NCBI GenBank assembly: GCA_031426635.1
Contig: JASJPN010000035.1
Span: 237 to 64,236 of the forward strand
Origin: Polaromonas sp.
GTDB lineage: Bacteria; Pseudomonadota; Gammaproteobacteria; Burkholderiales; Burkholderiaceae_C
Length of the DNA stretch: 64,000 bases
Direction of reading: 5' to 3'
In this document: positions 1-60,193 of the stretch, piece by piece
Position numbering within the stretch: position 1 is the first letter of the stretch
How the letters are laid out: each line of letters opens with the position of its first letter
Notes under the pieces: generated by a model
What the model was told of the DNA's origin: nothing
Seen by the model: only the letters and a program-made list of their open reading frames with translations
Databases searched by the model: none
Translations under genes and position numbers: made by a program

Positions 1-240
1 TGCATAATTGCTATTAGTCGGCATAGCACCTGCCTGACCAGCTACAAAATCAGTAGCGCCTAGAAGCCTGGCCACGGCCAGTGAATCGACGACAACAGCC
101 GGTGCTGCAGCAGAGGCAGCGCCAACTGGTTGGACCGTGACAAACTTCAAAGCCCAATATGCGCCGCACAGCACAGCAACCAGCCACACGGTCAGTGTAA
201 TAAGTCGTAACGGCCATGACGTTTGTGAGAGTGTCTTCAT
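1..240 (-). CDS. type II secretion protein GspC-like, 5' part (truncated by window edge)
   Basis: The reverse complement of 1-240 reads MKTLSQTSWPLRLITLTVWLVAVLCGAYWALKF...VARLLGATDF with no stop. It has one N-terminal TM helix and is divergent from gspG. The call rests on position and topology only. Confidence 0.45.
   Translation of the reverse strand, partial: MKTLSQTSWPLRLITLTVWLVAVLCGAYWALKFVTVQPVGAASAAAPAVVVDSLAVARLLGATDFVAGQAGAMPTNSNYA
17..57. repeat. AT-rich bipartite module copy (GTCGGC-N18-GCTA-N9-TAGC), inside gspC-like CDS
   Basis: GTCGGC at 17-22, an 18-nt spacer, and GCTAcaaaatcagTAGC at 41-57. Its reverse complement shares 32/42 nt with the metG copy. Confidence 0.7.
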
Positions 241-320
241 GAGGCGATTATGATTCAATCCACTTTCGAACCCTGCTTCGAAACAATATTCAAACCGATA
301 TTTCAAGAGGTCAGATCCAG

Positions 321-782
321 ATGAATCATCAAAAACTGCAACATTTACAGCTCCAGCACCGATTGGCACACAAAGTACAGCGCGGCTTTACATTGATTGA
401 GTTGATGGTCGTGCTCGTCATCATTGGCGTCTTGGCCGCTTTGATTGTGCCCAACTTGTTAGAGCGTGCCGACGACGCACGCGCCACGGCGGCCAAAACC
501 GATGTCAACAACGTCATGCAAGCCCTCAAACTCTACAAACTCGACAACCAGGCCTATCCCACAGCCGAGCAAGGGCTGCAAGCGCTGGTGACGCGCCCCA
601 GCAGCGGCCCCGCAGCGCCAAACTGGAAGACGTATTTAGAAAAATTGCCCAACGACCCGTGGGGCCAGCCCTACCAATACCTCAATCCCGGCATCAAAAG
701 CGAGATTGACGTGATGTCCTTCGGTGCCGATGGGCAAGCGGGTGGGGAAGGGAAAAATGCGGATATCGGCTCTTGGCAGTAA
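321..782 (+). CDS. gspG: T2SS major pseudopilin GspG
   Basis: Prepilin motif QRGFTLIELMVVLVIIGVLAALIVP and a conserved GspG C-terminus (DPWGQPYQY...SFGADGQ). AAGAGG lies upstream of ATG 321. An in-frame TTG at 363 would give a conventional short leader. Confidence 0.9.
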   Translation: MNHQKLQHLQLQHRLAHKVQRGFTLIELMVVLVIIGVLAALIVPNLLERADDARATAAKTDVNNVMQALKLYKLDNQAYPTAEQGLQALVTRPSSGPAAPNWKTYLEKLPNDPWGQPYQYLNPGIKSEIDVMSFGADGQAGGEGKNADIGSWQ

Positions 783-1306
783 GACTGTTAACCACAAGAC
801 AGCAATCAGGCAGTCTGCGCTTGCTACAACCACATCCACGCTCTAAAAGTGCCCGCGGCTTCACCCTCTTGGAGCTGCTGGTGGTGGTCGCCATCATCGC
901 CATTGCCAGTGCGGGGGTGGTTTTCGCCCTTCCTGATGCCTCGAATACGGCCTTGGAACGCGATGCGCAGCGCTTGGCAGCCTTGCTTGACTCGGCTCGA
1001 GCGCAGTCACGGGCCAGTGGCTTGGCGGTCTATTGGCATGCTACGCCGGAAGGTTTTAAGTTTGAGGGCTTGCCGCAAACCATCAATCAGGCCACGGGCG
1101 AGCTGCAAGAACTGTCCAAACTTTCTGGCAACTGGCTCAGCACAGGCACCAGCGCCGACCCCGACAGCCATTTAGCATTGGGACCAGAGCCCATCATCGC
1201 GCGGCAAGAGCTTGTTTTGCATAACGCTGGCCGCAGCCTGATGCTGACAACCGACGGCCTGAGGCCCTTTTCCATTGACCTGGCTGCCAAGGCGGATTCA
1301 CTTTGA
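773..1306 (+). CDS. gspH: T2SS minor pseudopilin GspH
   Basis: ARGFTLLELLVVVAIIAI prepilin N-terminus. The start is uncertain: TTG at 773 as in the ORF track, or in-frame TTG at 821. Confidence 0.8.
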   Translation: MAVRLLTTRQQSGSLRLLQPHPRSKSARGFTLLELLVVVAIIAIASAGVVFALPDASNTALERDAQRLAALLDSARAQSRASGLAVYWHATPEGFKFEGLPQTINQATGELQELSKLSGNWLSTGTSADPDSHLALGPEPIIARQELVLHNAGRSLMLTTDGLRPFSIDLAAKADSL

Positions 1307-1338
1307 AAATTCGCCTGAAAACCCGCCTGCACCGCAAC

Positions 1339-1704
1339 ATGAAACGCAACTTGGCGAGCTCAGGCTTTACGCTGATTGAGGTCTTGGTGGCGCTGGGCAT
1401 TGTGTCCATCGCACTGCTGGCCGGGATGCGCGCGACCACGTCTTTGGTCAACAACGCTCAGCGCTTATCAGACGTTCTTTCAGGACAAATGTGTGCTGAA
1501 AACGAGCTGATCAAGGTGCGCCTGGCTAAATCCATGCCCAATGTGGGCGACAGCACATTTGCCTGCGAACAAGCGGGGCGCAACTTGACTGGCCACCTGA
1601 CCGTGTCGTCAACGCCCAATCCAAGTTTTCGCCGCGTCGATGCACAGGTGATGGATGGTGAGTCCACCCTGCTCAAACTCTCCACCATCGTTGGGAGGTT
1701 TTGA
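1339..1704 (+). CDS. gspI: T2SS minor pseudopilin GspI
   Basis: SGFTLIEVLVALGIVSIALLA prepilin motif. ATG 1339 gives MKRNLASSGF. The ORF-track start at 1303 is TTG. Confidence 0.8.
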   Translation: MKRNLASSGFTLIEVLVALGIVSIALLAGMRATTSLVNNAQRLSDVLSGQMCAENELIKVRLAKSMPNVGDSTFACEQAGRNLTGHLTVSSTPNPSFRRVDAQVMDGESTLLKLSTIVGRF

Positions 1705-2429
1705 TGCTGCCTAAAATTGCCCGCAAAACAGGTCGTAAAAACCTGGGTTTCACGTTGATTGAACTGATGATCGCCGTCGCCGTCATGGCTTTGTTAGCCA
1801 TGCTGAGCTGGCGCGGCCTGGACGGCATGACGCGGGTGCAAAGCCAGACACAGGCTCAAACGGATGGCGTACTGGCTCTGCAAGCGGGCTTGGCACAATG
1901 GCAAACCGACCTGGACGCACTGACGCAGTTGCCGCAGGTCCCTGGTGTCAGTGCGCTGGACTACGATGGCCAGGTGCTGCGCTTGACGCGGCGCTACGTC
2001 GATCAGGGGATACCGGCTACCCCAAATAGCGGGAGCAGTAACAGCCACAGTGAAAGCATCCGCGTCGTCGCCTGGAGCCAGCGCGATGTGAACGGCCAAT
2101 CGCAGTGGCTGCGCTGGCAATCAGCGCCCCTGCAAACCCGCGCCGAGTTGCTGGCGGCTTGGCTGCAAGCCGCGCAGTGGGCCCAAAGCCCCAGTGACGC
2201 TGACAAAAAACGTGAAGTCGCCGTCGCCGCGATTGATAAGTGGCAAATTTATTACTACCGCAATGACGCCTGGAGCAACGCCTTGTCTAGCGCCGACGAA
2301 GCGCTAGGGTCGGCGCAAGCCGCACTGCCCGACGGCGTGCGCTTGGTACTGACTACGTCTGCCGGGCAAGCCTTAAGCGGCCAGATCACCCGCGACTGGG
2401 TGAGTCCGACCGTGGGGGGGGGGAAATGA
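1704..2429 (+). CDS. gspJ: T2SS minor pseudopilin GspJ
   Basis: LGFTLIELMIAVAVMALLA prepilin motif. ATG 1704 overlaps the gspI TGA (TGATG). The gene ends in a G10 tract. Confidence 0.8.
   Translation: MLPKIARKTGRKNLGFTLIELMIAVAVMALLAMLSWRGLDGMTRVQSQTQAQTDGVLALQAGLAQWQTDLDALTQLPQVPGVSALDYDGQVLRLTRRYVDQGIPATPNSGSSNSHSESIRVVAWSQRDVNGQSQWLRWQSAPLQTRAELLAAWLQAAQWAQSPSDADKKREVAVAAIDKWQIYYYRNDAWSNALSSADEALGSAQAALPDGVRLVLTTSAGQALSGQITRDWVSPTVGGGK
2414..2423. repeat. G10 homopolymer at the gspJ 3' end / gspK ribosome-binding region
   Basis: cgtGGGGGGGGGGaaATGa. It encodes the GGG of the gspJ C-terminus (..VGGGK*) and lies 2 nt before the gspK ATG. Confidence 0.9.
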
Positions 2430-3457
2430 ACCAGCCGCGTGTGAAGCTACAGCACATGACACGTCAACACGGCGCAGCCTTGCTCTCTGCCATGCTGACA
2501 GTAACCCTGGTGGCCACCTTTGCCGCCGCCGCTTTGTGGCAACAATATCGCAGCATCGAAGTTGAAACTGCCGAGCGGGCTCGGGTGCAAGTGGCGTGGC
2601 TGCTGGTCGGCGCACTGGACTGGTCACGGCTGATTTTGCGTATTGATGGCCGCGCCGGCGCCACCGACCACTTGGCAGAACCTTGGGCCGTGGCGCTGCA
2701 AGAGTCACGTTTGTCCACTTTTTTAGCCGCTGACAAGAACAATACCGGTGGCATGACGGCCGAAGAATCGCTAGATGCGTTTTTGTCCGGTCAAGTGCTG
2801 GATGCGCAAGCACGGCTGAATGTGTTCAACTTGATCGACAACGGCAAAGTGTCTGCGCCGGACGTGGCGGCGTTCACCAAACTATTTACTTTGCTTGATC
2901 TTCCCGTGCCAGAACTGGAAACCTTAGTGAACAACTTCAAGGCATCGGCTGACATCACCCCAAAAAACAGCGCCGCCAACGCCACAGCTAGCTTGATGCC
3001 GCAACGCGTGCGCCAATTGACCTGGTTGGGTGTGCGCCCAGGCACCTTGGCCAAACTCACGCCCTACATCACCTTGCTGCCAGAACGCACCCCCGTCAAT
3101 CTCAACACCGCTCCCGCAGAGGTCATTTACGCGAGTGTGCCCAAATTGGAACTGGCCGATGCCAAGCTGGCAGTCACAACGCGCGAGCGCACGCATTTTG
3201 CATCTCTCGCTGAAGTGGCCCTGGCCGTACCGGCCGTGACGGGGCAGTTGAATGCGGCCCAGCACAGCGTTGCGTCACGATTTTTTGAAGTCCGCGGCCG
3301 CTTGCGGCTGGAGCAAACCGTGGTCGAAGAGCAATCGTTGGTCAAACGCGATACCTCCAGCAATGTCAGAACACTCTGGCGTGAACGTGCGGTCGTCGCC
3401 TCGCCCGAACCATCCATGACCGCATCCACCGAAGCGCCAACGACATCCTTACAATGA
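2426..3457 (+). CDS. gspK: T2SS minor pseudopilin GspK
   Basis: N-terminal hydrophobic segment GAALLSAMLTVTLVATFAAAALW, a size of about 340 aa, its position after gspJ, and an ATGA overlap with gspJ. Confidence 0.75.
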   Translation: MNQPRVKLQHMTRQHGAALLSAMLTVTLVATFAAAALWQQYRSIEVETAERARVQVAWLLVGALDWSRLILRIDGRAGATDHLAEPWAVALQESRLSTFLAADKNNTGGMTAEESLDAFLSGQVLDAQARLNVFNLIDNGKVSAPDVAAFTKLFTLLDLPVPELETLVNNFKASADITPKNSAANATASLMPQRVRQLTWLGVRPGTLAKLTPYITLLPERTPVNLNTAPAEVIYASVPKLELADAKLAVTTRERTHFASLAEVALAVPAVTGQLNAAQHSVASRFFEVRGRLRLEQTVVEEQSLVKRDTSSNVRTLWRERAVVASPEPSMTASTEAPTTSLQ

Positions 3458-3461
3458 CCTT

Positions 3462-4742
3462 ATGAGCAAGTTGATCGTTTCCCTACCTTGGCGAGTGCCT
3501 AACGCTGGTCCCCCCCAGTCCTTTGCCACGCCCAGCACTTCAGGCGCCACAAGCTCGCCTGCCGCCAACTTGGAGTACAGCTACGCACTAGCCAATGATG
3601 CCAACAGCTTGATCAGCAGTGGCACCGCCCCCCTGAACCTGCTACCGCAGGCAGACAAAACCATTCTGGTAGCCCCCGCACGGGCACTATCGTGGCACCA
3701 AATCGACCTGCCCAAGGTGCCCAAAGCGCGTCTGCGCGCCGCACTGGACGGGTTGTTGGAAGAGCGCCTGCTGGACGACACCAGCGCCATGTCGTTTGCC
3801 CTCTCACCCGATGCCCCGGCTGGTCAGGCCACTACAGGCGTGTGGGTGGCGGCCTGCGATAAAACCTGGTTGACGGGGGCGATTCATTCCTTTGAGGCCG
3901 CTGGTTGCCGCGTGACGCAGGTTGTGCCCGAGTTTTGGCCAACCGAGGAACCTGTGGTGTGTGTCACTGGCACACCCGAAGATGCCTGGCTGACGCGCAC
4001 CGCACCCGATGGTGTGTTGACCATCCCCTTGCGAGACCATGAAATCAGCGGTTTAGTGGGGTCAGGTTCTGCGCTTTTGGCAGATTTCCCCACTGACGCC
4101 GCCGTTTTAGCCGAGCCAGCCGTGGCTGCTTTGGCTGAGCAGATCTTGGCACGTCAAGTGATGATCCGCCAAAGCGTGGCGGGTTTGCTGCAAAGCGGGC
4201 AGTCACTGTGGGAATTGGCTCAGTTTGAGCAGCGTTTGAGCGGTGACGGCGAAGGCATCAAACGCCTGCGCCGCGCTTGGCAAACCTTTTGGCAAACCTC
4301 GGCTTGGCGGCCCGCCCGTTGGGGACTGGTCGCCGTACTGCTGGCCAATATCGTCGGTTTGAACGCCTGGGCCTGGCAGCAGCGATCCGCCCTCACGGCC
4401 AAACGCGTCCAGTTGGGTGTCTTACTCACGCAAACCTTCCCCGGCGTCAAAGTGGTGGTCGATGCACCGCTACAAATGGCCAAGGAAATAGCGCTTTTAC
4501 GTCAAGCGACAGGCGCCCTTTCCGTTCAAAATTTTGAAGCAATTTTATCTTCATTTAGCACATCAGCCAGCGTAAATACTACACCTACAGCTATTGAATA
4601 TATAGCAAATACAATCCATTTGAAGGGCATTAAATTGACCGATGCGGAGTTAGCCGCGACCCAGGCCAAGCTCAGAACAGCGGGCTATTCACTTAAAATG
4701 GATGGCGACAGAGCCACGGTAAAAGCAGAGGTGCGCCCATGA
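3462..4742 (+). CDS. gspL: T2SS inner-membrane protein GspL
   Basis: 426 aa with a single central TM (WGLVAVLLANIVGLNAWAW). It sits between gspK and gspM and has an ATGA overlap with gspM. Confidence 0.75.
   Translation: MSKLIVSLPWRVPNAGPPQSFATPSTSGATSSPAANLEYSYALANDANSLISSGTAPLNLLPQADKTILVAPARALSWHQIDLPKVPKARLRAALDGLLEERLLDDTSAMSFALSPDAPAGQATTGVWVAACDKTWLTGAIHSFEAAGCRVTQVVPEFWPTEEPVVCVTGTPEDAWLTRTAPDGVLTIPLRDHEISGLVGSGSALLADFPTDAAVLAEPAVAALAEQILARQVMIRQSVAGLLQSGQSLWELAQFEQRLSGDGEGIKRLRRAWQTFWQTSAWRPARWGLVAVLLANIVGLNAWAWQQRSALTAKRVQLGVLLTQTFPGVKVVVDAPLQMAKEIALLRQATGALSVQNFEAILSSFSTSASVNTTPTAIEYIANTIHLKGIKLTDAELAATQAKLRTAGYSLKMDGDRATVKAEVRP
4566..4606. repeat. AT-rich bipartite module copy (GCCAGC-N18-GCTA-N9-TAGC), inside gspL
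   Basis: GCCAGC at 4566-4571, an 18-nt spacer, and GCTAttgaatataTAGC at 4590-4606. It sits in an AT-rich island at about 4520-4645. Confidence 0.7.
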
Positions 4743-6078: not shown

Positions 6079-6082
6079 TCAT

Positions 6083-9627: not shown

Positions 9628-9639
9628 CCGGTTTGCACT

Positions 9640-10872: not shown

Positions 10873-10912
10873 TTAATTCCCCGGTTTTTTTTCACTTTAA
10901 CCACACCCTGCC

Positions 10913-14799: not shown

Positions 14800-15520
14800 C
14801 ATCGCGTTTAAACCTAACCTCATTCCAAGCCATATCGCGCCCATCAAGCATCAAAAGTCGGCCGATCAATGGCTTTCCAACTTCGCTGATGATCTTCAAA
14901 GCCTCTGCAGCCTGCATGGAGCCAATGATGCCAACCAAAGGCGCAAAAACCCCCATGGTGGCACAGCGCGTTTCTTCCAAGTCAGCATCCGGTGGAAAAA
15001 TGCACGCGTAGCAAGGCGCTGATGCATGGCGACTGTCGTAGACGGCTATTTGACCGTCAAAGCGTATGGCCGCACCCGAAACCAACGGTTTGCGGTGGTT
15101 GACACAAGCTGTATTGATGGCATGGCGGGTAGCAAAGTTATCGCAACAATCCAGTACCACGTCGGCGTCAGCAACCAGCTTATCGAGCAACGCTGCGTCT
15201 GCCCGCTCAAGAACAGGGATCACTTGCACATCGGGATTGATATTTGCTATTTTATTCATAGCAGACTGCGCTTTATATTCACCGATATCAGTCATATTGT
15301 GGGCTATTTGACGCTGTAGATTCGTGAGATCCACCACATCATCATCCACCAAGGTGATGCGACCCACCCCCGCTGTGGCCAGATACAAAACCACCGGAGA
15401 GCCCAAACCGCCCGCGCCGATGACCAGTACACGGGCTTGCAAAATTTTCTCCTGACCTTCGACTCCCACCTCGTTGAGAAGAAGATGACGAGAGTAACGC
15501 AGTAGCTGATCGTCAGTCAT
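14759..15520 (-). CDS. moeB: molybdopterin-synthase adenylyltransferase (ThiF/MoeB family)
   Basis: LRYSRHLLL...VLVIGAGGLGSP dinucleotide fold and CxxC pairs (CYACIF, CVVCG). Confidence 0.85.
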   Translation of the reverse strand: MTDDQLLRYSRHLLLNEVGVEGQEKILQARVLVIGAGGLGSPVVLYLATAGVGRITLVDDDVVDLTNLQRQIAHNMTDIGEYKAQSAMNKIANINPDVQVIPVLERADAALLDKLVADADVVLDCCDNFATRHAINTACVNHRKPLVSGAAIRFDGQIAVYDSRHASAPCYACIFPPDADLEETRCATMGVFAPLVGIIGSMQAAEALKIISEVGKPLIGRLLMLDGRDMAWNEVRFKRDVNCVVCGKGHAHV

Positions 15521-15601: not shown

Positions 15602-17050
15602 TCAATTGTCTTTTTTCTCTTCTTTGCGTTCCACCATGGTTTTACTCACCAACACGGGACGCCCTTTGAGTTGGTTGATGGCCTGCGCCAATTGGAAATC
15701 CTTGTCCGTGCCGAACTCTGGAATTTTGCGCTCTTGCACAGGTTTTTTAGCTTCCTCTTCTAACCTCTTGAGTGCCATGTCTCGTTCTTTTTCACGTACT
15801 TCCTTTTTCACGGGGTCTTCAGCAGCACCGCCTTGGCCACTTTCCAAGTGCTTTTCCAAATCGGCTTCGCGGGTGCGCAACACCGCAAACGGGCTGCCTT
15901 CTGCCGTCTCGTCGACCATGACATCGGGCACAATGCCTTTGGCCTGAATGGATTTACCGCTAGGCGTGTAATAGCGCGCCGTGGTCAGCTTGATACCGGT
16001 GTCTGGCCCCAAGGGACGCACGGTTTGGACCGAGCCCTTGCCAAAGGTTTGACTACCCAAAATAGTGGCGCGCTTGTAGTCTTGCAATGCCCCAGCAACA
16101 ATTTCACTGGCAGAAGCAGAACCTTCATTAACCAATACCACCAAAGGCACACTTTTAAGTGCGGCAGGCAAGCGCTTCAAGGGGTCCGTACCGCCACGGC
16201 GCAAATAAAACTCAGGCGCAGCTTTGTAGCTGAACTTGCTGTCTGCCAATTGGCCGTTGGTAGATACCACAGCCACGTTTTCTGGCAAAAAGGCCGCAGA
16301 AACCGCCACCGCTGCATCCAGCAAGCCACCCGGATCGTTGCGCAAATCAAGCACCAAGCCTTTGAGGCTGGGTTCTTGTTTATAGATTTCCTCTATCTTT
16401 TTCACAAAATCATCGACCGTGCGATCCTGGAATTGCGTCAAGCGAATCCAACCGTAACCAGGCTCAACAACCTTACCTCGCACCGACTGCGTTTTGATCT
16501 CTTCACGCACGATGGTGACGGGGAAGGTTCGGTTTTCTTCTTTACGAAACACCGTCAAAATGACCTTGGTATTGGGCTCGCCGCGCATGCGTTTGACCGC
16601 CTCGTTGAGAGTCAGTCCACGCACGGCGGTGGTGTCAATTTTGGTAATCAAGTCATTGGATTTGAGTCCTGCACGGAAGGCGGGTGAACCTTCAATCGGC
16701 GACACGACTTTGACCAAACCATCTTCAAAGCTGATCTCAATCCCCACGCCGACAAACCTGCCGGAGGTACCTTCGCGGAATTCTTTGTACGATTTTTTAT
16801 CGAAGTACTGAGAGTGCGGGTCCAGACTGGCCACCATGCCTGAAATAGCATCAGAAATCAGCTTTTTCTCGTCCACAGGCTCAACGTAATCGCTTTTGAT
16901 CAAGCCAAACACATTGGCCAGCTGCTGCAGCTCTTCCAGGGGCATAGGCGCGAGGGCGCCGCGCGCTACCGTTTGCAGCGACACCGTGGTCAGCGCACCG
17001 GCCAATGCACCAACAGAAATCCAACCAGCGATTTTGAGTTTATGACCCAT
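15602..17050 (-). CDS. ctpA: carboxy-terminal processing protease (S41 family)
   Basis: PDZ region, S41 catalytic region (LVNEGSASASEIVAGALQD, GKGSVQT) and an N-terminal signal anchor. Confidence 0.9.
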   Translation of the reverse strand: MGHKLKIAGWISVGALAGALTTVSLQTVARGALAPMPLEELQQLANVFGLIKSDYVEPVDEKKLISDAISGMVASLDPHSQYFDKKSYKEFREGTSGRFVGVGIEISFEDGLVKVVSPIEGSPAFRAGLKSNDLITKIDTTAVRGLTLNEAVKRMRGEPNTKVILTVFRKEENRTFPVTIVREEIKTQSVRGKVVEPGYGWIRLTQFQDRTVDDFVKKIEEIYKQEPSLKGLVLDLRNDPGGLLDAAVAVSAAFLPENVAVVSTNGQLADSKFSYKAAPEFYLRRGGTDPLKRLPAALKSVPLVVLVNEGSASASEIVAGALQDYKRATILGSQTFGKGSVQTVRPLGPDTGIKLTTARYYTPSGKSIQAKGIVPDVMVDETAEGSPFAVLRTREADLEKHLESGQGGAAEDPVKKEVREKERDMALKRLEEEAKKPVQERKIPEFGTDKDFQLAQAINQLKGRPVLVSKTMVERKEEKKDN

Positions 17051-21471: not shown

Positions 21472-21483
21472 GGAAACCCGTAT

Positions 21484-21524
21484 GCCGGCTACGAAATAAA
21501 TACTTATGCTATTAATTTTATAGC
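21484..21524. repeat. AT-rich bipartite module copy (GCCGGC-N18-GCTA-N9-TAGC), intergenic secB-gpsA
   Basis: GCCGGC at 21484-21489, an 18-nt spacer, and tGCTAttaattttaTAGCa at 21508-21524 (perfect 5-bp arms). A further TATAGCCAGC lies at 21548-21557, and a one-mismatch core lies at 21576-21592 over the gpsA start. Confidence 0.7.
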
Positions 21525-21578
21525 AAATTTATCATGCCATTTCACCATATAGCCAGCATATAACATGCCTACCTTGCT

Positions 21579-22616
21579 ATGAAAATCATAGTATTTGGAG
21601 CCGGCGCATGGGGCACAGCCTTGGCCATCAGTGCCAGCAACAATGCCCCTGCGAAGCATCAGGTCACCCTCTGGGCACGTGATGCCAGGCAGGCTGCGTT
21701 GATGCAGGTGCATCGCGAAAATCAGCGCTATTTGCCCGGTGTGGCGTTACCAGCATCGCTGAGCATCAGCAGCGACGCTGTGGATCAACTCGCACAAACA
21801 GCTGATGTATGCATCATTGCCACGCCCATGTCGGGGCTGCGCGGGATGCTGACACAGCTGCGCGATGCGCCTTGTCCAGTCGCTTGGCTGTGCAAGGGCT
21901 TTGAAGCAGGCGTTGGCTCTAAAAACGGGCTGCTAGGCCATGAAATATATGCCCAAACAACGGCCCTGATACAAGCCAGGCAGCCTTTGAATCAACAGAC
22001 AATGCAATGCGGCGTATTAAGTGGCCCGAGTTTTGCGCTAGAAGTGGCACGCGGCCAGCCCACCGCCCTGGTCGCTGCCAGTGAACATGCCCGCGTGCGC
22101 GATGCCCTGGTCGAAGCCTTTCACAGCCCGGTGCTGCGTGTTTACGCCAGCGAGGACGTGGTAGGCGTTGAAGTCGGCGGTGCGGTGAAAAACGTCCTGG
22201 CGATTGCAACTGGTTTGTGCGATGGCCTGGGTTTGGGCTTGAATGCACGCGCTGCCCTCATCACCCGTGGTTTGGCCGAGATGACACGCTTGGGGCTGGC
22301 TTTGGGTGCCAAACTCGAGACTTTCATGGGACTGTCGGGTCTGGGCGACCTGGTGCTCACGGCCACCGGCGACTTGAGCCGTAATCGCAAAGTGGGTTTG
22401 CTGTTGGCGCAAGGGAACACGTTGCAACAAGCCGTCGAGTCGTTGGGACATGTGGCTGAAGGGGTGTATTGCGCCAGAACGGTCAGCCAGCGGGCGCTGT
22501 CACTGGGGGTGGACATGCCGATCACACAATGCGTGGTACAGGTTCTGGATGGCCGCATGAGCCCGATTCAAGCGGTCGCGCTATTGATGGGACGCGACGC
22601 AACTGAAGAAATTTAG
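21579..22616 (+). CDS. gpsA: NAD(P)H-dependent glycerol-3-phosphate dehydrogenase
   Basis: [16 protein letters not shown] Rossmann start, [12 protein letters not shown] and the LSRNR motif. Confidence 0.95.
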
Positions 22617-37044: not shown

Positions 37045-39166
<2,122 letters not shown>

Positions 39167-39213
39167 TGACTGTAACAGATTTATGCTTCTGCGTGCTTGA
39201 CTGTCGCAGTTGC

Positions 39214-40871: not shown

Positions 40872-41732
40872 TCAGTTCGGCGTATAAGCTAGACGCACAT
40901 AAATCGGCGCAAAGGCTTCGGCTTGGGTAATGTCAATCAAGGTCTCTTTGGCCAGCTCGAGCATGGCAATAAAAGTCACGACCAACACGGGAATGCCCTT
41001 GGCGGGGTCGAAGAGTTTTTCAAATTCAACAAAATGCTTGCCCTGCAACTTGCGCAGCACAATACTCATGTGCTCGCGCACCGACAGCTCTTCACGGCTG
41101 ATGGTGTGGTGTTGCACCAGTTTGGCACGCTTCATGATGTCGCGCCAAGCCGCCTGCAAATCCAGTGCATCGACATCAGGAAAACGCGGCTGTAGCGATT
41201 GCTCGATGTACACCTGCGCCCGCAGCACGTCGCGGCCCAACTGCGGTAAGTTGTTGATTTTCATGGCGGCGAGCTTCATTTGCTCGTACTCCATCAGGCG
41301 ACGCACCAGTTCGGCGCGCGGGTCTTCGGGCTCTATACCCTCCGCCGTCTTTTTCGGCGGCAGCAACATGCGTGATTTGATCTCAATCAGCATCGCCGCC
41401 ATCAAGAGGTATTCAGCCGCCAACTCCAGGTTGTGGCTACGAATTTCCTCCACATAACTCAGGTATTGGCGCGTCAGCCCCGCCATCGGGATGTCCAAAA
41501 TATTGAAATTTTGTTTGCGAATCAGGTACAGCAGCAGGTCCAGCGGCCCTTCAAACGCCTCTAAAAACACCTCCAGCGCGTCGGGTGGGATGTACAAATC
41601 GTGCGGCAGGTTGAACAAAGGCTCGCCATACAGGCGTGCCAACGCGACCTGGTCAACCACCCGTGGCATCGCCAACAGGCTGGCCTGCTCCGTCAGCCCA
41701 GGCGTGGTGTTTGATTCCCCGGATTCAATCAT
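40872..41732 (-). CDS. scpA: segregation and condensation protein A
   Basis: FEGPLDLLLYLIRKQNFNILDIPMA kleisin N-terminal motif. The start is uncertain because there is no SD before ATG 41732. An internal M at MPRVVDQ is possible. Confidence 0.85.
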   Translation of the reverse strand: MIESGESNTTPGLTEQASLLAMPRVVDQVALARLYGEPLFNLPHDLYIPPDALEVFLEAFEGPLDLLLYLIRKQNFNILDIPMAGLTRQYLSYVEEIRSHNLELAAEYLLMAAMLIEIKSRMLLPPKKTAEGIEPEDPRAELVRRLMEYEQMKLAAMKINNLPQLGRDVLRAQVYIEQSLQPRFPDVDALDLQAAWRDIMKRAKLVQHHTISREELSVREHMSIVLRKLQGKHFVEFEKLFDPAKGIPVLVVTFIAMLELAKETLIDITQAEAFAPIYVRLAYTPN

Positions 41733-41773
41733 GCTATATTTTTAATAGCAACAAATGCATTAAATACGCTGGC
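41733..41773. repeat. AT-rich bipartite module copy (GCTA-N9-TAGC-N18-GCTGGC), intergenic and abutting the scpA start codon
   Basis: tGCTAtatttttaaTAGCa at 41733-41749, an 18-nt spacer, and GCTGGC at 41768-41773, followed by the palindrome GGCTATAGCC. Confidence 0.7.
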
Positions 41774-41821
41774 TATAGCCATATTCATCCAATATTTCAA
41801 ACAAAATAACACCCCTCAAAC

Positions 41822-42028
41822 TCAGCTCGGCTCAGTTTGATAAACGTAGGGGTTTTGTGCCACCGCACCGTCTCGGTACTCGGCTTGCAGACCACGATCG
41901 ACATTTTTGTCCCACAACAAGGCGCGGCCCGCGCGCTGTTCAGCCTCCAAGCCGGGTTTGTCAGTTTTCAGCTTTTCAATAAACAAAGTCACATCTGACT
42001 GGTAGTCGGGGCGGCGAAAGATGGTCAT
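41822..42028 (-). CDS. small conserved protein (DUF3460-like)
   Basis: 68 aa, MTIFRRPDYQSDVTLFIEKLK...LLWDK. By recollection it matches the small DUF3460 family found next to scpA in Burkholderiales. Confidence 0.55.
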   Translation of the reverse strand: MTIFRRPDYQSDVTLFIEKLKTDKPGLEAEQRAGRALLWDKNVDRGLQAEYRDGAVAQNPYVYQTEPS

Positions 42029-45183: not shown

Positions 45184-47409
45184 TTATTTCACCCGCATGC
45201 CGGGCTGAGCACCGGGCAGGGGTTCCAAGATGTAAATCCCCGGTTGCGTTTTCTCGTCAGCGGCGCTGGCAGCCAACACCATGCCCTCGGACATGCCAAA
45301 CTTCATCTTGCGCGGTGCCAGGTTAGCCACCATGACGGTGTGTTTGCCAATCAAGTCGGCAGGCTGGTAACTTGAGGCGATGCCGCTGAAGACGTTGCGC
45401 GTTTTGGGCAAGCCAGCCTCGTCCGTTTCGCCCACGTCCAAGGTCAGGCGCAGCAACTTGGTCGAGCCTTCTACCTCCTCACAGTTGACGATTTTGGCAA
45501 TCCGCAGGTCGATTTTGGCAAAGTCGTCGATGCTGATGACTTCTGATGCAGCTTCTGCACTGTTTTTTTGAATAGCTTTTGAGGCCGTTTTAGCTACTGA
45601 TTTAATAGCTGGTAAGGCAATATCTGCGCCGGCTGGAGCTTCAAATAGGGCCTCCAATTGCTCAACTGTAACGCGTTGCATCAAATGTTTGTATTCGCCC
45701 ACCTGATGCCCGAGAGGCAGTACTGTTCCTACGTCTGCAAAAGTCAGCGGACTTGCAACTTGAAGGAAAATTTCCGATTGTTTTGCGAGCTCTGGCAGGA
45801 TTGGCTTTAAGTGAAGCGTGAGCAGCCTGAAGGACTCAATCACGACAGAGCAAATTCGATGTAACCAAGCAGGATCAGACGGGTTTTCAGGATTTTCAAA
45901 CTTTTTCGACAACACCCAGGGTTTGACTGAGTCCCAAAATTCATTGGTTTCATCAGCAAGTTTCATTATCAATCTAGTAGCTAAACTGAACTCTCGCTTT
46001 TCATAACAGTCGATGATTGAAGTGCTGGTACGTCTAATGCTTTCAAGAACAACGTCGTAGTAAGGGCCAACTACTGCATTGTTGGCATAAACATTACCAA
46101 GCTTAAGATCACCGATACGTCCATCGAAATGCTTATGTAGAAATCCCGCTGCACGGCTCGCAATATTCACAAATTTGCCAATCAAGTCCGAGTTCACGCG
46201 CAGCATGAAATCCTCAGCATTAAAGTCGATATCTTCATTTTTCGCCGACAGCTTGGCCGCCAGGTAGTAGCGCAACCATTCGGGGTTCATTCCGAGGCTC
46301 AGGTACTTGAGCGGGTCCAGGCCCGTACCACGGCTCTTGCTCATCTTCTCGCCGTTGTTCACCGTCAAAAAGCCGTGCACGAACACGTTGTTTGGCGTTT
46401 TGCGACCGCTGAAGTGCAGCATGGCGGGCCAAAACAGGGTGTGGAAGGTGACAATGTCTTTGCCGATGAAGTGGTACTGCTCCAGCGCGGGGTTGGCCAT
46501 GTAGGCGGCGTAGTCCTGGCCACGCTTGTCCAGCAGGTTTTTGAGGGACGCCAGATAGCCAACGGGCGCGTCCAGCCACACATAGAAGTACTTGCCGGGT
46601 GCATCTGGAATCTCGATACCAAAATAGGGCGCGTCACGAGAAATATCCCAGTCGCCCAAGCCTTCGCTGGTGCTGCCATCAGGATGGGTACGGACTGAAA
46701 ACCACTCTTTGACCTTGTTGGCCACCTCGGGTTGCAGTCGTGGCTTGCCATTTTCATCGGACTCTTGTGTCCATTTTTGCAAAAACTCAACGCAGCGCGG
46801 GTCAGAGAGTTTGAAGAAAAAGTGCTCTGAACTCTTGAGTTCAGGCTTGGCACCCGACAAGGCGGAGTAGGGATTGATCAAGTCGGTGGGGGCGTACACG
46901 GCCCCGCAGTTTTCGCAGTTATCGCCGTACTGGTCTTTGGCATGGCACTTGGGGCACTCGCCCTTGATGAAGCGGTCGGGCAGGAACATGTTCTTCTGCG
47001 GGTCGAAAAACTGCTCGATGGTTTTGCTCTCAATCAGCGATCCGTCTTGGCGATCGCGCAGGTCGCGGTAAATCTGGCGGGCCAGCTCGTGGTTTTCTGG
47101 CGCGTCGGTCGAGTGCCAGTTGTCAAAACTGATATGAAAACCATCCAGGTAGGGCTTGCGACCGCTAGCAATATCAGCCACAAACTGCTGCGGCGTTTTG
47201 CCTGCCTTCTCGGCGGCAATCATGATGGGCGCGCCGTGGGTGTCGTCTGCGCCTACAAAATTGACGTCATGACCCTGCATCCTTTGAAAACGCACCCAAA
47301 TATCGGCCTGGATGTACTCCATGATGTGGCCAATGTGAAAGTTACCATTGGCGTAAGGCAGCGCGGTGGTGACGAAAAGCTGACGAGGAGCAGTCTGAAT
47401 GGCAGTCAT
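45184..47409 (-). CDS. metG: methionine--tRNA ligase with C-terminal tRNA-binding (Trbp111-like) domain
   Basis: HIGH ([11 protein letters not shown]), KMSKS, a zinc knuckle (CPKC...CENCG) and a C-terminal [13 protein letters not shown]...[21 protein letters not shown]. 741 aa. Confidence 0.96.
45593..45633. repeat. AT-rich bipartite module copy (GCTA-N9-TAGC-N18-GCCGGC), inside the metG linker
   Basis: aGCTActgatttaaTAGCt at 45593-45609, an 18-nt spacer, and GCCGGC at 45628-45633. On the coding strand it reads [14 protein letters not shown]. Confidence 0.7.
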
Positions 47410-51509: not shown

Positions 51510-51525
51510 TTTAAAATTAAATCGC

Positions 51526-53382
51526 ATGAAATCAGTTCCTTCCATCGTTCTTGCAACCCCTGACCAACTGCGCGAACGTATTCGCCAGAAAAGCAAACTC
51601 AAGGGGCGGCAAGCTGATGATTTATCACGCAGTGAAGTGGTGAATCTGATTGGCGCACGACCGATGGAAGGTTACCGACGCGATTTGTTGATTGAAAACT
51701 TGCACTTATTGAATGATACCTACCGCTGCCTGCATGAGCGGCATTTGGTCGCCTTGGCCAAAGAGATGAACATCCCCATGACCGAGGTGTACGAGGTGGC
51801 GACCTTTTATCACCACTTTGAGGTGGTGCGTGGCCAAAAAGAGGGCGATATAACCATCGATGGCGCCGCGCCCGCGTTAACCATCCGCGTGTGTGACGGT
51901 TTGTCGTGCGAGCTGGCGGGGGCGCAAGATTTGCTCAAACGTCTACCCGCCATCTTAGGCAGCGCAGAGATTCGCGTGATTCCAGCGCCTTGTATTGGAC
52001 GCTGCGAACAAGCCCCAGCGGTGGCGGTGCATCAAACACCCGTACCTTACGCAAGCATTGAAAGTATTAAATCGACAGTAAATTTAATACTAAACTCGAC
52101 AGAAGCCGGCGAATATATTGACTATAAAGCTACTAATTTTATAGCAAGCAACTTCACGGAAAAGAGTGTGTCCCCGCATCCGGGTGAGCCCCATGCAGGT
52201 CGCACCCCTGCTTACACCGACTACAGCACGTACGTAGCAAACGGTGGCTATGCCTTGCCAGGCAACATCGTCACTGGTAGCCAGGATGTAGAGCCCATCC
52301 TGAAAGCGCTGGAAGACTCGGGTGTGCGTGGCCTGGGCGGCGCGGGCTTCCCTGTGGGGCGAAAATGGCGCATCGTGCGTGACCAGATCGCCCCCAAACT
52401 CATGACCGTCAACATCGACGAAGGCGAGCCCGGCACCTTCAAAGACCGCACCTACCTAGAGCGCGACCCGCACCGGTTTTTAGAGGGTATGCTGGTGGCC
52501 GCACTGGTGGTGGGCATAGACGCGTGTTACATCTACCTGCGGGACGAATACCACGATTGCAGACGTCTGCTAACGGCAGAACTTGCCAAATTACAAGCCC
52601 ATCCTCCCCCTGCGCTGGTTGGCAAACTACCTCACATTGAGCTCAGGCGCGGTGCGGGTGCCTATATTTGCGGTGAAGAGTCCGCCCTGATTGAAAGCAT
52701 TGAAGGCAAACGCGGTGAGCCCCGCATGCGCCCGCCTTACATCGCGCAGGTTGGCTTGTTTGGCAGGCCAACGCTGGCACACAATTTTGAGACGCTGTAC
52801 TGGGTGCGCGACATTGTGCAGTTGGGTCCCCAGTGGTTCAGTGGGTTTGGTCGCCATGGCCGCAAAGGTTTGCGCAGCTTCAGCGTCAGTGGCCGCGTCC
52901 AGCACCCGGGCGTCAAATTGGCCCCGGCGGGCATCACGGTGCAAGAGCTGATTGCCGAGTATTGCGGCGGCATGTTGGATGGCCACCAGTTGTATGCCTA
53001 TTTGCCAGGCGGTGCGTCGGGCGGAATTTTTCCGGCCAGTTTGGGTAACGTTCCGATGGATTTTGATGTTTTGCAGGCCCATGGTGGCTTTATTGGATCG
53101 GCGGCGGTGATTGTGCTGAGCCAGCACGACAAAGCACGCGATGCGGCTTTGAACATGATGCGATTCTTTGAGCACGAGAGCTGCGGTCAGTGCACACCGT
53201 GTCGCGTCGGGACGGCCAAAGCAGCGCGCTTGATGGAAGCGCCAGTTTGGGACAACGCCACGCTAGAGGATTTGAATGTGGTGATGACGGATGCCTCTAT
53301 CTGCGGTTTAGGTCAAGCGGCACCCAACCCTGTACGCAGCATTCAAAAATACTTTTCCCATGAAATCGGAGGTGCCGTATGA
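51526..53382 (+). CDS. fdsB: NAD-dependent formate dehydrogenase diaphorase subunit (fused NuoE-like + NuoF-like modules)
   Basis: The N-terminus has the 2Fe-2S thioredoxin-like module (VCDGLSCELAG...CIGRCEQAP). The C-terminus has the NuoF-like FMN/NADH and 4Fe-4S module (GLGGAGFP.GRKW, YICGEESALIES, ESCGQCTPCR). ATGA overlap with fdsA. Confidence 0.88.
   Translation: MKSVPSIVLATPDQLRERIRQKSKLKGRQADDLSRSEVVNLIGARPMEGYRRDLLIENLHLLNDTYRCLHERHLVALAKEMNIPMTEVYEVATFYHHFEVVRGQKEGDITIDGAAPALTIRVCDGLSCELAGAQDLLKRLPAILGSAEIRVIPAPCIGRCEQAPAVAVHQTPVPYASIESIKSTVNLILNSTEAGEYIDYKATNFIASNFTEKSVSPHPGEPHAGRTPAYTDYSTYVANGGYALPGNIVTGSQDVEPILKALEDSGVRGLGGAGFPVGRKWRIVRDQIAPKLMTVNIDEGEPGTFKDRTYLERDPHRFLEGMLVAALVVGIDACYIYLRDEYHDCRRLLTAELAKLQAHPPPALVGKLPHIELRRGAGAYICGEESALIESIEGKRGEPRMRPPYIAQVGLFGRPTLAHNFETLYWVRDIVQLGPQWFSGFGRHGRKGLRSFSVSGRVQHPGVKLAPAGITVQELIAEYCGGMLDGHQLYAYLPGGASGGIFPASLGNVPMDFDVLQAHGGFIGSAAVIVLSQHDKARDAALNMMRFFEHESCGQCTPCRVGTAKAARLMEAPVWDNATLEDLNVVMTDASICGLGQAAPNPVRSIQKYFSHEIGGAV
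52105..52145. repeat. AT-rich bipartite module copy (GCCGGC-N18-GCTA-N9-TAGC), inside the fdsB inter-module linker
   Basis: GCCGGC at 52105-52110, an 18-nt spacer, and GCTActaattttaTAGC at 52129-52145. It reads AGEYIDYKATNFIA. Confidence 0.7.
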
Positions 53383-56264: not shown

Positions 56265-56316
56265 AACGACGTACCGATTTGGGTGGGATAGCCAATCCGT
56301 TATATTAGCGCCAGTT

Positions 56317-57556: not shown

Positions 57557-59567
57557 AAGCCTGACGCTTCACTCCACCTTGTGCCGCCGCGAGGCTGGCG
57601 CCTTCATCAAGGCCATCCAGACAGGCGAGGACGTGGTGGTCGCCTGCACTCAGGAAAAGCGGCTGTTTGCCGAACTGGCAGAGCAGACCGTTGGAGCCGT
57701 CTCGCCTATTCGTTTCGTGAATATTCGAGAAACCGGTGGCTGGAGCAAAGATGCCCACAAGGCCAGCCCTAAAATTGCCGCCCTGCTGGCGGCTGCCCAT
57801 CTACCCGAGCCTGAACCCGTCGCCACGGTCACCTACAAAAGCGCTGGACGGCTGCTGATTATTGGTGAACTGGGGGCTGCCGAGCGTGCAGCCAATCTAT
57901 TGGGTGAAGATCTCGACGTCACCTTGTTCACGCAAGGCTCGGGAGACCTGGGTGCGATGCAGGAGCGGCGTTATCCGATACTGGGTGGGCAGATTCAGGC
58001 GCTAACCGGATGGCTGGGTGCCTTTGAACTCAAGTGGCTGCGTAACAACCCGATTGATCTGGACTTATGCACGCGTTGCAACGCTTGTTTAGCTGTGTGC
58101 CCCGAAGATGCCATCGGTTTTGATTATCAAATTGACATGGCGCTTTGCAAATCTCACCGCACCTGCGTCAAGGCGTGCCAAGTAGCTGGCGCGATTGACT
58201 TCAGCCGGGAACCAGAGGCGTTGAGTGAAAAGTTTGACCTGATCCTTGATCTACGAGCCACGCCCGCTTTCACGCAGCATGCCCTGCCCCAAGGCTACCT
58301 GCGCTGGGATGGTCTTGACCCCAAGCCCTTGATTACGGTGCGTGCGCTGGTAGGCGAATTTGAAAAGCCCAAGTTCTTTGTTTATAAACAAAAACTCTGT
58401 GCGCACAGCCGCAACGAAAAAATTGGCTGCAATGCCTGCATCGACGTGTGCTCCGCATCCGCTATCAGCAGCGAACGTGATCGTCAACAAATCAAAGTCA
58501 ATCCCAGTCTGTGTGTGGGGTGCGGCACCTGCACCACCGTCTGTCCCAGCGGTGCCTTGACCTATGCCTATCCGCGTGCGAGCGATCAAGGACTGAAGAT
58601 CAAGACCATGCTCAGTACTTTCGCCCTGAGCGGCGGCAAGAATGCTGCTCTACTGCTACACAGTCAAGAAAGCGGCACACGCCTGGTGGGCGATTTGGGT
58701 CGTGCAGCCCAGCTGGACAAAGCAACACATGGCGTGCCTGCTCGCGTGCTGCCCATTGCACTTTGGCACACCTCGTCGATCGGGCTGGAGGTCTGGCTGA
58801 CAGCGATAGCCTATGGTGCCTCACAGGTCTGGGTGCTCATGACTGACGAGGAGGCGCCGCAATACCATGAGGCGATTCGCAGCCAGATGGCCGTGGCACA
58901 AACGATTCTGACGGGGTTAGGCTACCAAGGCGAACATTTCCGCATTCTGCATGCCAGGGACGCACGCGATCTGGCGGCGCTGGACCGCGATTTGCAGGCT
59001 GCTCCCGCCCAATGCGTCAGCCGCGGTGCCAGCTTTGCAGTGCAGTCCGACAAACGAACTACACTGGAATTGGCTCTGGATCATCTGGCGGAGTACGCTC
59101 CTTTAAAACCGGAGGTCATTGCGCTGCCCGCCACGGGTTCGCCGCTGGGTTCGCTCAAGCTCAACAAAGATGCCTGCACCTTGTGCCTGAGCTGTATCAA
59201 TGCCTGCCCGGCCAGTGCCCTGCAAGACAACCAGGAGTCGCCCCAGCTCAAATTTATCGAGAAAAACTGTGTTCAATGTGGTTTGTGCGTCAAAACCTGT
59301 CCAGAAAAAGCGCTCTCCCTGGTGCCGCAACTGAACCTGACACCTCAACGCAAAGAAGCAATCGTGATGAATGCGATGGCACCTTACGCTTGTGTGCGCT
59401 GTAGCAAACCCTTCGGCACGCTCAAAGCCATCGAATCCATGCTGGGCAAATTGGCTGGACATAGCATGTTTCAGGGCGTCGCGTTGGAACGCCTGAAAAT
59501 GTGCAGTGACTGCCGGGTGATCGATATTTACTCGGCACAGAATGAAGCAAAAATAACGGATATCTGA
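57483..59567 (+). CDS. large multi-cluster 4Fe-4S ferredoxin-domain protein
   Basis: 694 aa. The N-terminus is MTTLICDCNKTMPLD. There are at least four CxxCxxCxxxCP motifs (CTRCNACLAVCP, CVGCGTCTTVCP, CTLCLSCINACP, CVQCGLCVKTCP) plus extra Cys pairs. Confidence 0.75.
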   Translation: MTTLICDCNKTMPLDSRGLGAALNESLTLHSTLCRREAGAFIKAIQTGEDVVVACTQEKRLFAELAEQTVGAVSPIRFVNIRETGGWSKDAHKASPKIAALLAAAHLPEPEPVATVTYKSAGRLLIIGELGAAERAANLLGEDLDVTLFTQGSGDLGAMQERRYPILGGQIQALTGWLGAFELKWLRNNPIDLDLCTRCNACLAVCPEDAIGFDYQIDMALCKSHRTCVKACQVAGAIDFSREPEALSEKFDLILDLRATPAFTQHALPQGYLRWDGLDPKPLITVRALVGEFEKPKFFVYKQKLCAHSRNEKIGCNACIDVCSASAISSERDRQQIKVNPSLCVGCGTCTTVCPSGALTYAYPRASDQGLKIKTMLSTFALSGGKNAALLLHSQESGTRLVGDLGRAAQLDKATHGVPARVLPIALWHTSSIGLEVWLTAIAYGASQVWVLMTDEEAPQYHEAIRSQMAVAQTILTGLGYQGEHFRILHARDARDLAALDRDLQAAPAQCVSRGASFAVQSDKRTTLELALDHLAEYAPLKPEVIALPATGSPLGSLKLNKDACTLCLSCINACPASALQDNQESPQLKFIEKNCVQCGLCVKTCPEKALSLVPQLNLTPQRKEAIVMNAMAPYACVRCSKPFGTLKAIESMLGKLAGHSMFQGVALERLKMCSDCRVIDIYSAQNEAKITDI

Positions 59568-59572
59568 ACATC

Positions 59573-60193
59573 ATGCTCGCTCCCAACTCAATGCAAACCA
59601 GTGCCCTTGACGAGGAAACCGCCCGTTCAGAGCTTTACGGTCTCCTGGCCCATTTATTTTATGCGCCACCAGCTACTGAATTAATAGCGCAACTGCGTGT
59701 GGCAGTCACCGACACACCCGCCGCCGGTGCCTTTCTGGAAGAACCTTGGCGCTCCTTGGTGGGCGTCTCCCGTGCGATGACTGACCAAGCTATTCAAAAC
59801 GAATACAACGACTTGTTCGGCGGGGTGGGCAAGCCGGAGGTCTACCTATACGGATCTCACTTCCTAAGTGGCTTTCTCAACGAAAAGCCGCTGGCCAGGC
59901 TACGCACCGAGCTGGCCAACCTGGGTTTGGAGCGCGATAAGAACATGCACGAAACTGAAGACCATGTTGCCTATCTGTGTGAAGTCATGCGCTACCTGAT
60001 CGCCGGTGACGATGTGGCCGTGGCCAACCTCACGCGTCAGCGAGAGTTCTTCTCGGTCCACATGCAGCCCTGGATGATGACGATGTGCGATGACCTACAA
60101 AAGCACCCCAGAGCCCGGTTTTACGCCGCTTTGGCCGAACTCACCCGCGCCTTTATGGGAGTTGAAGCCCAAGGTTTTGATATGCTGACTTGA
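59573..60193 (+). CDS. TorD/DmsD-family redox-enzyme maturation chaperone
   Basis: 206 aa with the family-typical pattern ARSELYGLLAHLFYAPP...EYNDLFGG...YLYGSHF...EDHVAYLCEVM. Confidence 0.75.
   Translation: MLAPNSMQTSALDEETARSELYGLLAHLFYAPPATELIAQLRVAVTDTPAAGAFLEEPWRSLVGVSRAMTDQAIQNEYNDLFGGVGKPEVYLYGSHFLSGFLNEKPLARLRTELANLGLERDKNMHETEDHVAYLCEVMRYLIAGDDVAVANLTRQREFFSVHMQPWMMTMCDDLQKHPRARFYAALAELTRAFMGVEAQGFDMLT
59672..59688. repeat. module core only (GCTA-N9-TAGC), inside the torD-like gene
   Basis: aGCTActgaattaaTAGCg, read as ATELIA. There is no flanking hexamer at 18 nt, so it could be a chance or eroded copy. Confidence 0.35.

Follow-up and report, generated by a model that had tools for sequence, protein, structure and literature searches.

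We analysed a 64,000-nt stretch of Polaromonas sp. DNA (GenBank assembly GCA_031426635.1, contig JASJPN010000035.1, positions 237 to 64,236; hereafter the window), in which a short AT-rich dyad, GCTA-N9-TAGC, recurs in intergenic spacers and inside unrelated genes. A 41-nt module, in which a GC-rich hexamer lies exactly 18 nt from the dyad, had been described from the letters of the window as a dispersed bipartite module. We found that it is not a self-contained palindromic element but the 3′ two-thirds of a mosaic repeat of ~64 nt, and that the repeat appears confined to Comamonadaceae, where all detectable copies are located. The explanation that we favour, tentatively and with a probability of about 0.45, is a family-specific interspersed mosaic repeat of the class of the repetitive extragenic palindromic sequences (REP), bacterial interspersed mosaic elements (BIME) and enterobacterial repetitive intergenic consensus sequences (ERIC), which would be recognised as double-stranded DNA.

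The dyad occurs nine times in the window compared to 0.28 expected from dinucleotide-preserving shuffles, and the composite pattern GYCRGC-N18-GCTA-N9-TAGC has six exact matches compared to 0.04 expected, with a seventh (21552-21592) when one mismatch is allowed. This enrichment and the fixed register are non-random, and the feature is real. The original prediction had listed seven exact dyads and argued that they exceed chance; we recovered all seven, together with all six hexamers at exactly N18, and the argument holds against the shuffles, but two further exact dyads had been missed (15246-15262 in a ThiF/MoeB gene, and 15959-15975).

The full extent of the repeat became apparent from two collections. 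Loci of relatives were gathered by a genome scan with MetG, the closest being Comamonadaceae (Polaromonas and Rhodoferax, 72-77% identity); a protein identical to the MetG of the window is not on record, and the best locus, from a Polaromonas metagenome-assembled genome, reaches 77% amino-acid identity. In addition, metagenome contigs were scanned with a pattern for the dyad only, GCTAYTAWTTTTRTAGC. Because this pattern is the dyad alone, the metagenome flanks were not pre-selected. Nevertheless, for ~60 of the 67 dyads on metagenome contigs with a GC content of at least 0.5, the same upstream arm is found on one side in a fixed register, so that the N18 spacing is reproduced outside the window, and the information content of the alignment marks a conserved span of ~64 nt. 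The repeat consists, in order, of AAAT, GGCC, TCTAGC(C), a variable middle, GCGC, AGCAGCTA, an AT-rich 9-mer and TAGC; intergenic copies in relatives read (t)cAAAT-n-GGCCTCyAGCSC...GCGC-n-AGCA-GCTAY-N7-RTAGC. The GC hexamer of the window is the local version of a TAGCCC/TAGCGC box. A profile built from the relatives' copies (the family profile) gave 45 matches, all in Comamonadaceae-type loci. An independent profile built from the metagenome copies gave 20 matches in such loci, whereas 0.76 Mb of other Burkholderiales yielded no match, and it finds the window copies at 59631, 45646, 52090 and 41789. In chromosomal loci the density is approximately one copy per 3-10 kb.

The copies and the two doubtful dyads of the window are as follows.

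4..57, plus strand: module copy upstream of gspG (321-782), left box GTCGGC at 17-22, dyad at 41-57; exact composite match, family profile E 0.025.
4552..4608, plus strand: in-frame copy in gspL (3462-4742), about aa 364-382, where the GspL_C match (Pfam) ends and just beyond it, left box 4566-4571, dyad 4590-4606; composite match, family profile E 5e-7.
21477..21526, plus strand: copy in the secB-gpsA spacer, left box 21484-21489, dyad 21508-21524.
21536..21593, plus strand: second copy, in tandem with the first secB-gpsA copy, left box 21552-21557, one mismatch; its dyad GCTATGAAAATCATAGT (21576-21592) holds the gpsA start codon at 21579.
41732..41785, minus strand: copy ~60 nt upstream of the conserved ScpA start, between a DUF3460 gene (41822-42028) and scpA, left box 41768-41773, dyad 41733-41749.
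45591..45647, minus strand: metG linker copy, in frame and sense, about aa 588-606, separating the catalytic core from the tRNA-binding domain, left box 45628-45633, dyad 45593-45609; independent profile E 7e-4.
52091..52147, plus strand: in-frame copy in the linker of a NuoE/NuoF-like formate dehydrogenase beta subunit gene (fdsB-like, 51526-53382), about aa 189-207, left box 52105-52110, dyad 52129-52145.
59632..59688, plus strand: module-like segment in a TorD/NarJ-type chaperone gene (59573-60193), aa 20-39 in the N-terminal region, left box GCCCAT (family type), dyad 59672-59688; best window match of the independent profile, E 3e-6.
15244..15284, minus strand: doubtful copy in the ThiF/MoeB gene (14759-15520), dyad 15246-15262 only, family profile E 0.033; the dyad is inside a conserved domain, and an orthologue (L031) has no indel and a different peptide.
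15959..15975, strand unassigned: exact dyad with a GC-rich spacer in an S41 peptidase gene, in a different reading phase; neither the family nor the independent profile matches it, and it is probably a chance occurrence outside the family.

One-mismatch dyads are at chance level as a class (15 observed and ~13 expected in the window, whose GC content is 52-59%). Among the three that had been proposed as copies, the left box is present only at 21576-21592, which we retain; those at 6146 and 14305 encode hydrophobic signal peptides (TIIFIAASS and AIIFTATSA) and score E 0.4 and E 9, respectively, with the family profile. Several statements about the genic copies also needed revision. Two of the exact dyads are intergenic (21508 at secB/gpsA and 41733 at DUF3460/scpA), which leaves fewer than the seven genic copies claimed. 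The module was said to occur in both orientations, and this is the case for the strands of the window; relative to the genes, orientation based on the GC box places all six or seven bipartite copies in the sense direction. The metG copy is among them, its reported antisense orientation being an error since metG itself is on the minus strand. In the annotated Rhodoferax antarcticus sequence described below, an FtsX-like gene carries both a sense and an antisense copy, and both coding orientations therefore exist in the family. The common phasing of in-gene copies on a GCT codon, taken earlier as evidence, is uninformative because the consensus dyad has stop codons in both other frames. Finally, the copy with its dyad at 41 had been assigned to gspC; this label is unverified because the GCT phase meets a TGA only 6 nt upstream, the dyad being 264 nt upstream of gspG. 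The reported similarity between this copy and that of metG was confirmed, with 31 of 41 nt identical between 17-57 and the metG copy.

As had been proposed, the module is a nucleotide-level feature and not a peptide motif. The dyad is found at the same metG position in at least 13 lineages, and its GCT and ATA/GTA codons are retained in all 13 taxa examined. Elsewhere in the same metG genes GCT accounts for 1-24% and ATA/GTA for 0-16% of synonymous codons; these values do not exceed 11% and 6% in nine of the ten relatives above 55% GC. The same module can be recognised at the fdsB site of three genera whose peptides there are quite different. Furthermore, orthologous non-coding copies at scpA share 52% identity, paralogues 51% and random 62-mers 27%. 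Orthologous copies thus resemble one another no more than paralogues do, and both values far exceed the random level, so that retention is limited to the consensus positions; this argues for continuing constraint or homogenisation. Strong homogenisation within genomes was considered and rejected, as copies show only a small excess of identity within genomes (50.7%) over that between genomes (47.1%).

The repeat would most likely work as double-stranded DNA. Under this hypothesis, the 17-bp dyad (4-bp arms GCTA and TAGC around the AT-rich 9-mer) would be the site of a symmetric, probably dimeric protein, and the upstream GC boxes (TCTAGCC, GCGC and AGCAGC) with AT patches at ~10.7-bp intervals would form an accessory arm that bends or wraps. 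The consensus positions may be held at each locus by purifying selection or by ongoing homogenising, while the rest drifts. Copies would persist where they do least harm. Outside coding sequence, these places would be the DNA after stop codons and spacers of the convergent or intercistronic kind; a copy within a gene would be restricted to the single open frame and to permissive segments, for example linkers. The symmetry of the dyad, the two directions of its spacer, the presence of arms on either or both sides and the phasing of the AT patches favour double-stranded recognition, as do three results given below: the lack of covariation in the dyad, fold energies near those of shuffles, and the near absence of the middle hairpin from the commonest dialect. 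Relative to the arm, the spacer carries a T-run in 33 and an A-run in 13 of the classified copies. In the metagenome alignment (L083-L200, index 20-90), AT-rich patches recur every ~10.7 bp with GC boxes between them, the patch centres being near 25, 35, 45, 57, 66, 78 and 89; this phasing looks like a DNA-bending or wrapping signature. Some metagenome dyads (L142, dyad 4181, and L088, dyad 7037) have module-like GCGC-n-RGCA sequences on both sides; with arms on both sides, the dyad is therefore the centre of a larger palindrome.

The location of the copies in genomes resembles that of REP and BIME. By context, the metagenome copies comprise 8 in convergent, 13 in tandem (7 sense and 6 antisense) and 2 in divergent positions; gene 3′ ends and convergent spacers are favoured. 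The earlier expectation of permissive placement was borne out, with copies in linkers and in intergenic spacers. An annotated R. antarcticus record (NZ_CP019241.1) holds 10 copies in 32 kb, including the sense and antisense copies of the FtsX-like gene, a sense copy in the pabB linker and spacer copies in one divergent, one convergent and four tandem positions. In contrast, the conjugative plasmid pPNAP01 of P. naphthalenivorans has 2 sites in 150 kb, which is ~10-fold rarer, and a BLAST search of the consensus against all PLSDB plasmids matched two records. An apparent tendency for start codons to follow the module by 2-5 nt was discarded as an artefact of open reading frame (ORF) calling, because the dyad is rich in stop codons.

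As in the REP and BIME of Enterobacteriaceae and Pseudomonas, which are associated with REP-associated tyrosine transposases (RAYT), hundreds of short copies are mainly extragenic, concentrate at gene 3′ ends and in convergent spacers, and are rare in divergent spacers (by our context counts and published genome counts) and on plasmids. Orthologous positions are likewise kept across genera, the boxes form a mosaic as in BIMEs, and one dialect, Type I, has an imperfect palindrome beside an xTAG tag. The module differs from them in that its best-kept part is the AT-rich 17-bp dyad and not a GC-rich hairpin, its commonest dialect has almost no hairpin, an appreciable share of copies is in frame inside genes, and its tag is (C/A/G)TAGC and not GTAG, which appears only as an RTAGC variant. 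The REP tags GTAG/CGTC were not conserved in the copies, which instead keep TCTAGC(C) as their left tag and GCTA/TAGC as the tags of the dyad. These genera are not mentioned in the REP surveys of the literature.

Several observations weigh against recognition of the repeat as double-stranded DNA or limit the evidence for it. Both the AT periodicity and the dimer site are read from sequence alone, and we know of no protein that binds the module. The context counts rest on crude gene calls based on GC at third codon positions. Stems of 6-10 bp with compensated arms are formed by copies of Type I and by some of those in R. antarcticus, and such hairpins fit recognition as single strands, as in the RAYT/REP system, or a role as RNA. 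The presence and absence of the repeat in module-sized units fits insertion by a mobile mechanism. A tblastn search with an approximate E. coli YafM query gave no RAYT match in 2.2 Mb that did not include complete Comamonadaceae chromosomes, which is a weak test. Overall we rank a site for a nucleoid or topology protein above the target of a RAYT-like enzyme, and the latter above an uptake signal.

Insertion at orthologous sites bears most directly on whether the repeat is a selfish, non-autonomous mobile element (a REP/REPIN or a miniature inverted-repeat transposable element, MITE) that is moved by a transposase encoded elsewhere, inserts neutrally and has no sequence-specific function for the host, a possibility that we regard as doubtful. 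Comparison with orthologues, which had been suggested as a check for inserted codons, gave a mixed result. Module-bearing metG orthologues have 10-12 extra linker codons and the CCAGC left box, and other orthologues are without both. In the fdsB linker, the full module is at the same site in two relatives (L005 and L013), and Caenimonas lacks 23 codons there. The scpA junction carries the module in at least eight genera-level lineages; it is absent in Caenimonas, Variovorax OV329 and others, the junction of V. paradoxus having ~60 nt more than that of Variovorax OV329. These length differences, together with the tandem copies at secB-gpsA, a high copy number with the 3′-end bias typical of REPs, and the (C/A/G)TAG tag that adjoins the hairpin in Type I copies, are what such an element would be expected to leave. 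On the other hand, two sites show no change in length. The TorD-like copy lies in a conserved helix and has no indel compared to the Piscinibacter orthologue (ELYGLLSRLWLAAPDVALLDQFRVAV vs ELYGLLAHLFYAPPATELIAQLRVAV), and a relative (L019) has the same dyad over the gpsA start, with a spacer no longer than in module-less orthologues. Because of these two sites, a reading of pure in-frame insertion is incomplete. Furthermore, neither terminal inverted repeats nor a target-site duplication, the marks of a MITE, was found when the occupied V. paradoxus site (L035) was compared to the empty Variovorax site (L031), and the two ends of the module (AAAT... and ...TAGC) are not inverted repeats of each other. 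The consensus is also kept across genera and at synonymous codons, both of which neutral insertions would lose, the repeat is strongly depleted on a plasmid of the same host, and no RAYT gene was seen in the weak test described above.

Two side observations were made at these sites. In Caenimonas soli (L029), an ATGA overlap joins the DUF3460 gene to the scpA ORF, and ATGATCGAATCCGG comes next. The same ATGATTGAATCCGG stands directly after the dyad in the window (41730-41750), where the DUF3460 frame runs through the module, past two stops, to that same TGA. In the fdsB linker of Simplicispira metamorpha (L013, ~6900-7000), about nine tandem GATGCCGCC repeats (ADAADAADAA...) lie just downstream of the in-frame module; no other fdsB orthologue has this run.

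The two sites without length change would fit another possibility, a signal for DNA uptake or self-recognition. In this scenario the competence machinery of Comamonadaceae would bind DNA that bears the module, or its core of dyad and GC box, and uptake bias with recombination would maintain the motif. An uptake signal, or a protein-binding site purged from constrained positions, had been raised in the original prediction and is viable, if anything strengthened by our data, yet we consider the uptake signal unlikely. Natural transformation with type IV pili and apparent DNA selectivity has been reported in V. eiseniae, A. temperans and A. facilis, and no uptake sequence was identified in these Comamonadaceae (PMC4212676). 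The in situ appearance of the motif without indels in a conserved coding segment and over a start codon, its retention at synonymous sites and its lack of orientation preference relative to transcription would all be accounted for. The module shares several properties with the DNA uptake sequences (DUS) of Neisseria and the uptake signal sequences (USS) of Pasteurellaceae: these are family-specific, have dialects as the module does family-wide, occur in both orientations, are enriched at permissive coding positions and near gene ends, are maintained in situ at synonymous sites and are depleted on foreign DNA, as the module is on the conjugative plasmid. The extended Haemophilus USS has a GC core beside phased AT tracts, to which the module can be likened. 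It differs in density, which is 3-10 times lower (approximately one per 3-10 kb vs one per kb in known DUS/USS), and in being a far longer mosaic rather than a 9-12-bp core. Hairpin-forming variants exist, and their compensated arms would be needless for a receptor of double-stranded DNA. The module-sized indels suggest insertion, and the 10 R. antarcticus copies lie in a region rich in insertion sequences (IS) and toxin-antitoxin genes.

The preference for gene 3′ ends is also what would be expected of an RNA-level element, in which a 3′-end or intercistronic stem-loop acts as terminator, attenuator or exonuclease barrier. In support of this, some copies in high-GC relatives can form a GC stem that has AYYRATTTTT behind it and an A-tract on its upstream side. 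We nevertheless judge such an element to be improbable. RNAalifold recovered the pre-selected dyad alone and no consensus structure upstream of it, and positions 5 and 13 of the dyad do not covary (Fisher p = 0.8); an extended RNA hairpin in the dyad was rejected on these two grounds. Folding of the RNA, which had been suggested as a check, gave energies close to those of shuffles (z -0.1 to -2.4 for the window copies; -8.8 vs -7.3 kcal/mol for metagenome copies and their shuffles). While Type I copies contain a perfect middle hairpin, AGCGCTTG...CAAGCGC, it is essentially absent from the commonest dialect, Type II (TAGCCCCCGTnnAATATGCGC). About a third of the copies have an A-run in place of the T-run, tandem copies are sense and antisense in similar numbers (7 vs 6), and copies are found inside essential genes. 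A scan for terminators and promoters did not flag the module sites. A classical intrinsic terminator was thus rejected, given also the variable direction of the T-run and the antisense, divergent and in-gene copies. A sigma-70 promoter was rejected as well: the dyad contains a -10-like TAYTAT, yet a -35 element at constant spacing is missing, and many copies separate convergent genes. Rfam 15 has no match at the module sites of the window and none, even at E values up to 5, at those of L013, and a tRNA or tmRNA identity was discarded for lack of a match at module sites. Sites for sigma-54, IHF, Fis and Lrp, CIRCE and the KorA/KorB operators have a half-site order or spacing that does not fit the module.

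Lastly, chance, an artefact of codon usage or conservation of the peptide A-[IT]-x-x-[IV]-A might account for the dyads at 6146, 14305 and perhaps 15246, which are hydrophobic or AT-rich coding sequence without the upstream arm, and for the one-mismatch class with its chance-level count, but as an explanation of the repeat it is hardly credible and is already refuted for the eight main copies by the enrichment far above shuffles, the intergenic copies with the same module, the rare codons fixed in the metG dyad, the DNA boxes that persist where orthologous peptides differ, and the distant TorD-like orthologue, which, where a shared peptide would have pointed to a protein motif, encodes a different one in ordinary codons.

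Parts of the repeat have been seen before. Tong et al. [quoted passage not shown] These pairs are pieces of the module: CTCTAG-N22-AGCTAT of the module corresponds to the first pair on the other strand in the same register, GCTAT-N6-TATAG to GCTA-N9-TAG, and GCTTAT-N5-AAGCG to the Type I middle hairpin. Their location agrees too, being mostly intergenic, often between convergent genes and 14-37% in genes, with 44 convergent, 4 divergent and 59 co-oriented occurrences in A. ebreus and 101 intergenic, 18 genic and 6 overlapping in P. naphthalenivorans (PMC5217627). The statistical footprint was therefore already published, with the element itself uncharacterised: in that survey the pentamer pairs stand isolated and are never joined into one module of ~64 nt, and family range, orthologous conservation, behaviour in coding frames and mechanism were outside its scope.

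Two other repeats invite comparison. The Rickettsia palindromic elements (RPE), to which the module had been likened, are also short repeats in frame within permissive segments of unrelated genes and with similarity at the nucleotide level. The resemblance fails in size and structure: RPEs are long palindromes of 100-150 bp, restricted to Rickettsia, that always add residues, whereas the module is ~64 nt, weakly palindromic and mostly intergenic, with two genic or start-codon copies that leave the length unchanged. The Bordetella repeat BRE is also present in Polaromonas, Rhodoferax, Delftia and Acidovorax (Hot et al. 2011, PMC3110155) and is likewise mostly intergenic with some copies inside genes. 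It has an unrelated sequence (TTTTTTTGGCCGCGGGCCGCCCAAGGCAAAAAAGCCCCC...), is ~90 bp long with 69% GC and forms tandem arrays; an identity with BRE was rejected because published BRE sequences show no relation to the module.

Comamonadaceae (Polaromonas, Rhodoferax, Acidovorax, Variovorax, Comamonas and Delftia) are major bacteria of freshwater, soil and wastewater. An element that is found every few kb of their genomes and kept at synonymous sites of the essential metG must affect genome biology, with chromosome structure, gene-end processing, recombination and DNA exchange as possible arenas. It had previously been noticed statistically only and never characterised; new here are the complete extent of the module, the range of the family that carries it and the way it behaves inside genes, which provide a probe for pull-down, chromatin immunoprecipitation and uptake work. 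For annotators, short AT-rich linker patches of rare codons in these genomes are copies of the repeat and not artefacts of sequencing or assembly. Should the module be an uptake signal, it would be the third independent system of this kind after those of Neisseriaceae and Pasteurellaceae, and it would explain the species-restricted transformation in Acidovorax and Verminephrobacter, the genome-specific dialects, the persistence at synonymous sites and the scarcity on conjugative plasmids.

Some further observations concern the sequences that carry the copies. The R. antarcticus record NZ_CP019241.1 (L201) is labelled ‘plasmid unnamed1’, linear, 31.9 kb; it contains pabB, ABC transporter genes, toxin-antitoxin pairs and two IS1634 copies, with no replication genes listed, and looks like an unplaced chromosomal fragment rather than a plasmid. 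The two pPNAP01 sites (L203, 36077-36130 and 37433-37487, at 186-187.5 kb of the plasmid) are sense to the genes and occupy two successive spacers between the cistrons of a BREX-2 defence operon (pglW / ATPase / pglX). On one metagenome contig (L112), dyads at 1734-1750 (plus strand) and 4106-4122 (minus strand) are inverted ~2.3 kb apart, have identical flanks of more than 60 nt and no family arm, and have the appearance of terminal inverted repeats from an unrelated transposable element. In the window, a complete type II secretion operon (gspG-H-I-J-K-L-M-N-D-E-F) spans 321-10872 on the plus strand, where gspG, L, N and D are confirmed by Pfam and the remaining gsp genes are inferred by size and order; the operon contains or adjoins two or three copies of the repeat. 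The one Rfam match of the window is a thiamine pyrophosphate (TPP) riboswitch (RF00059, 56.3 bits) at 39055-39168 on the minus strand, upstream of a 663-aa gene (37045-39036) that is presumably thiC.

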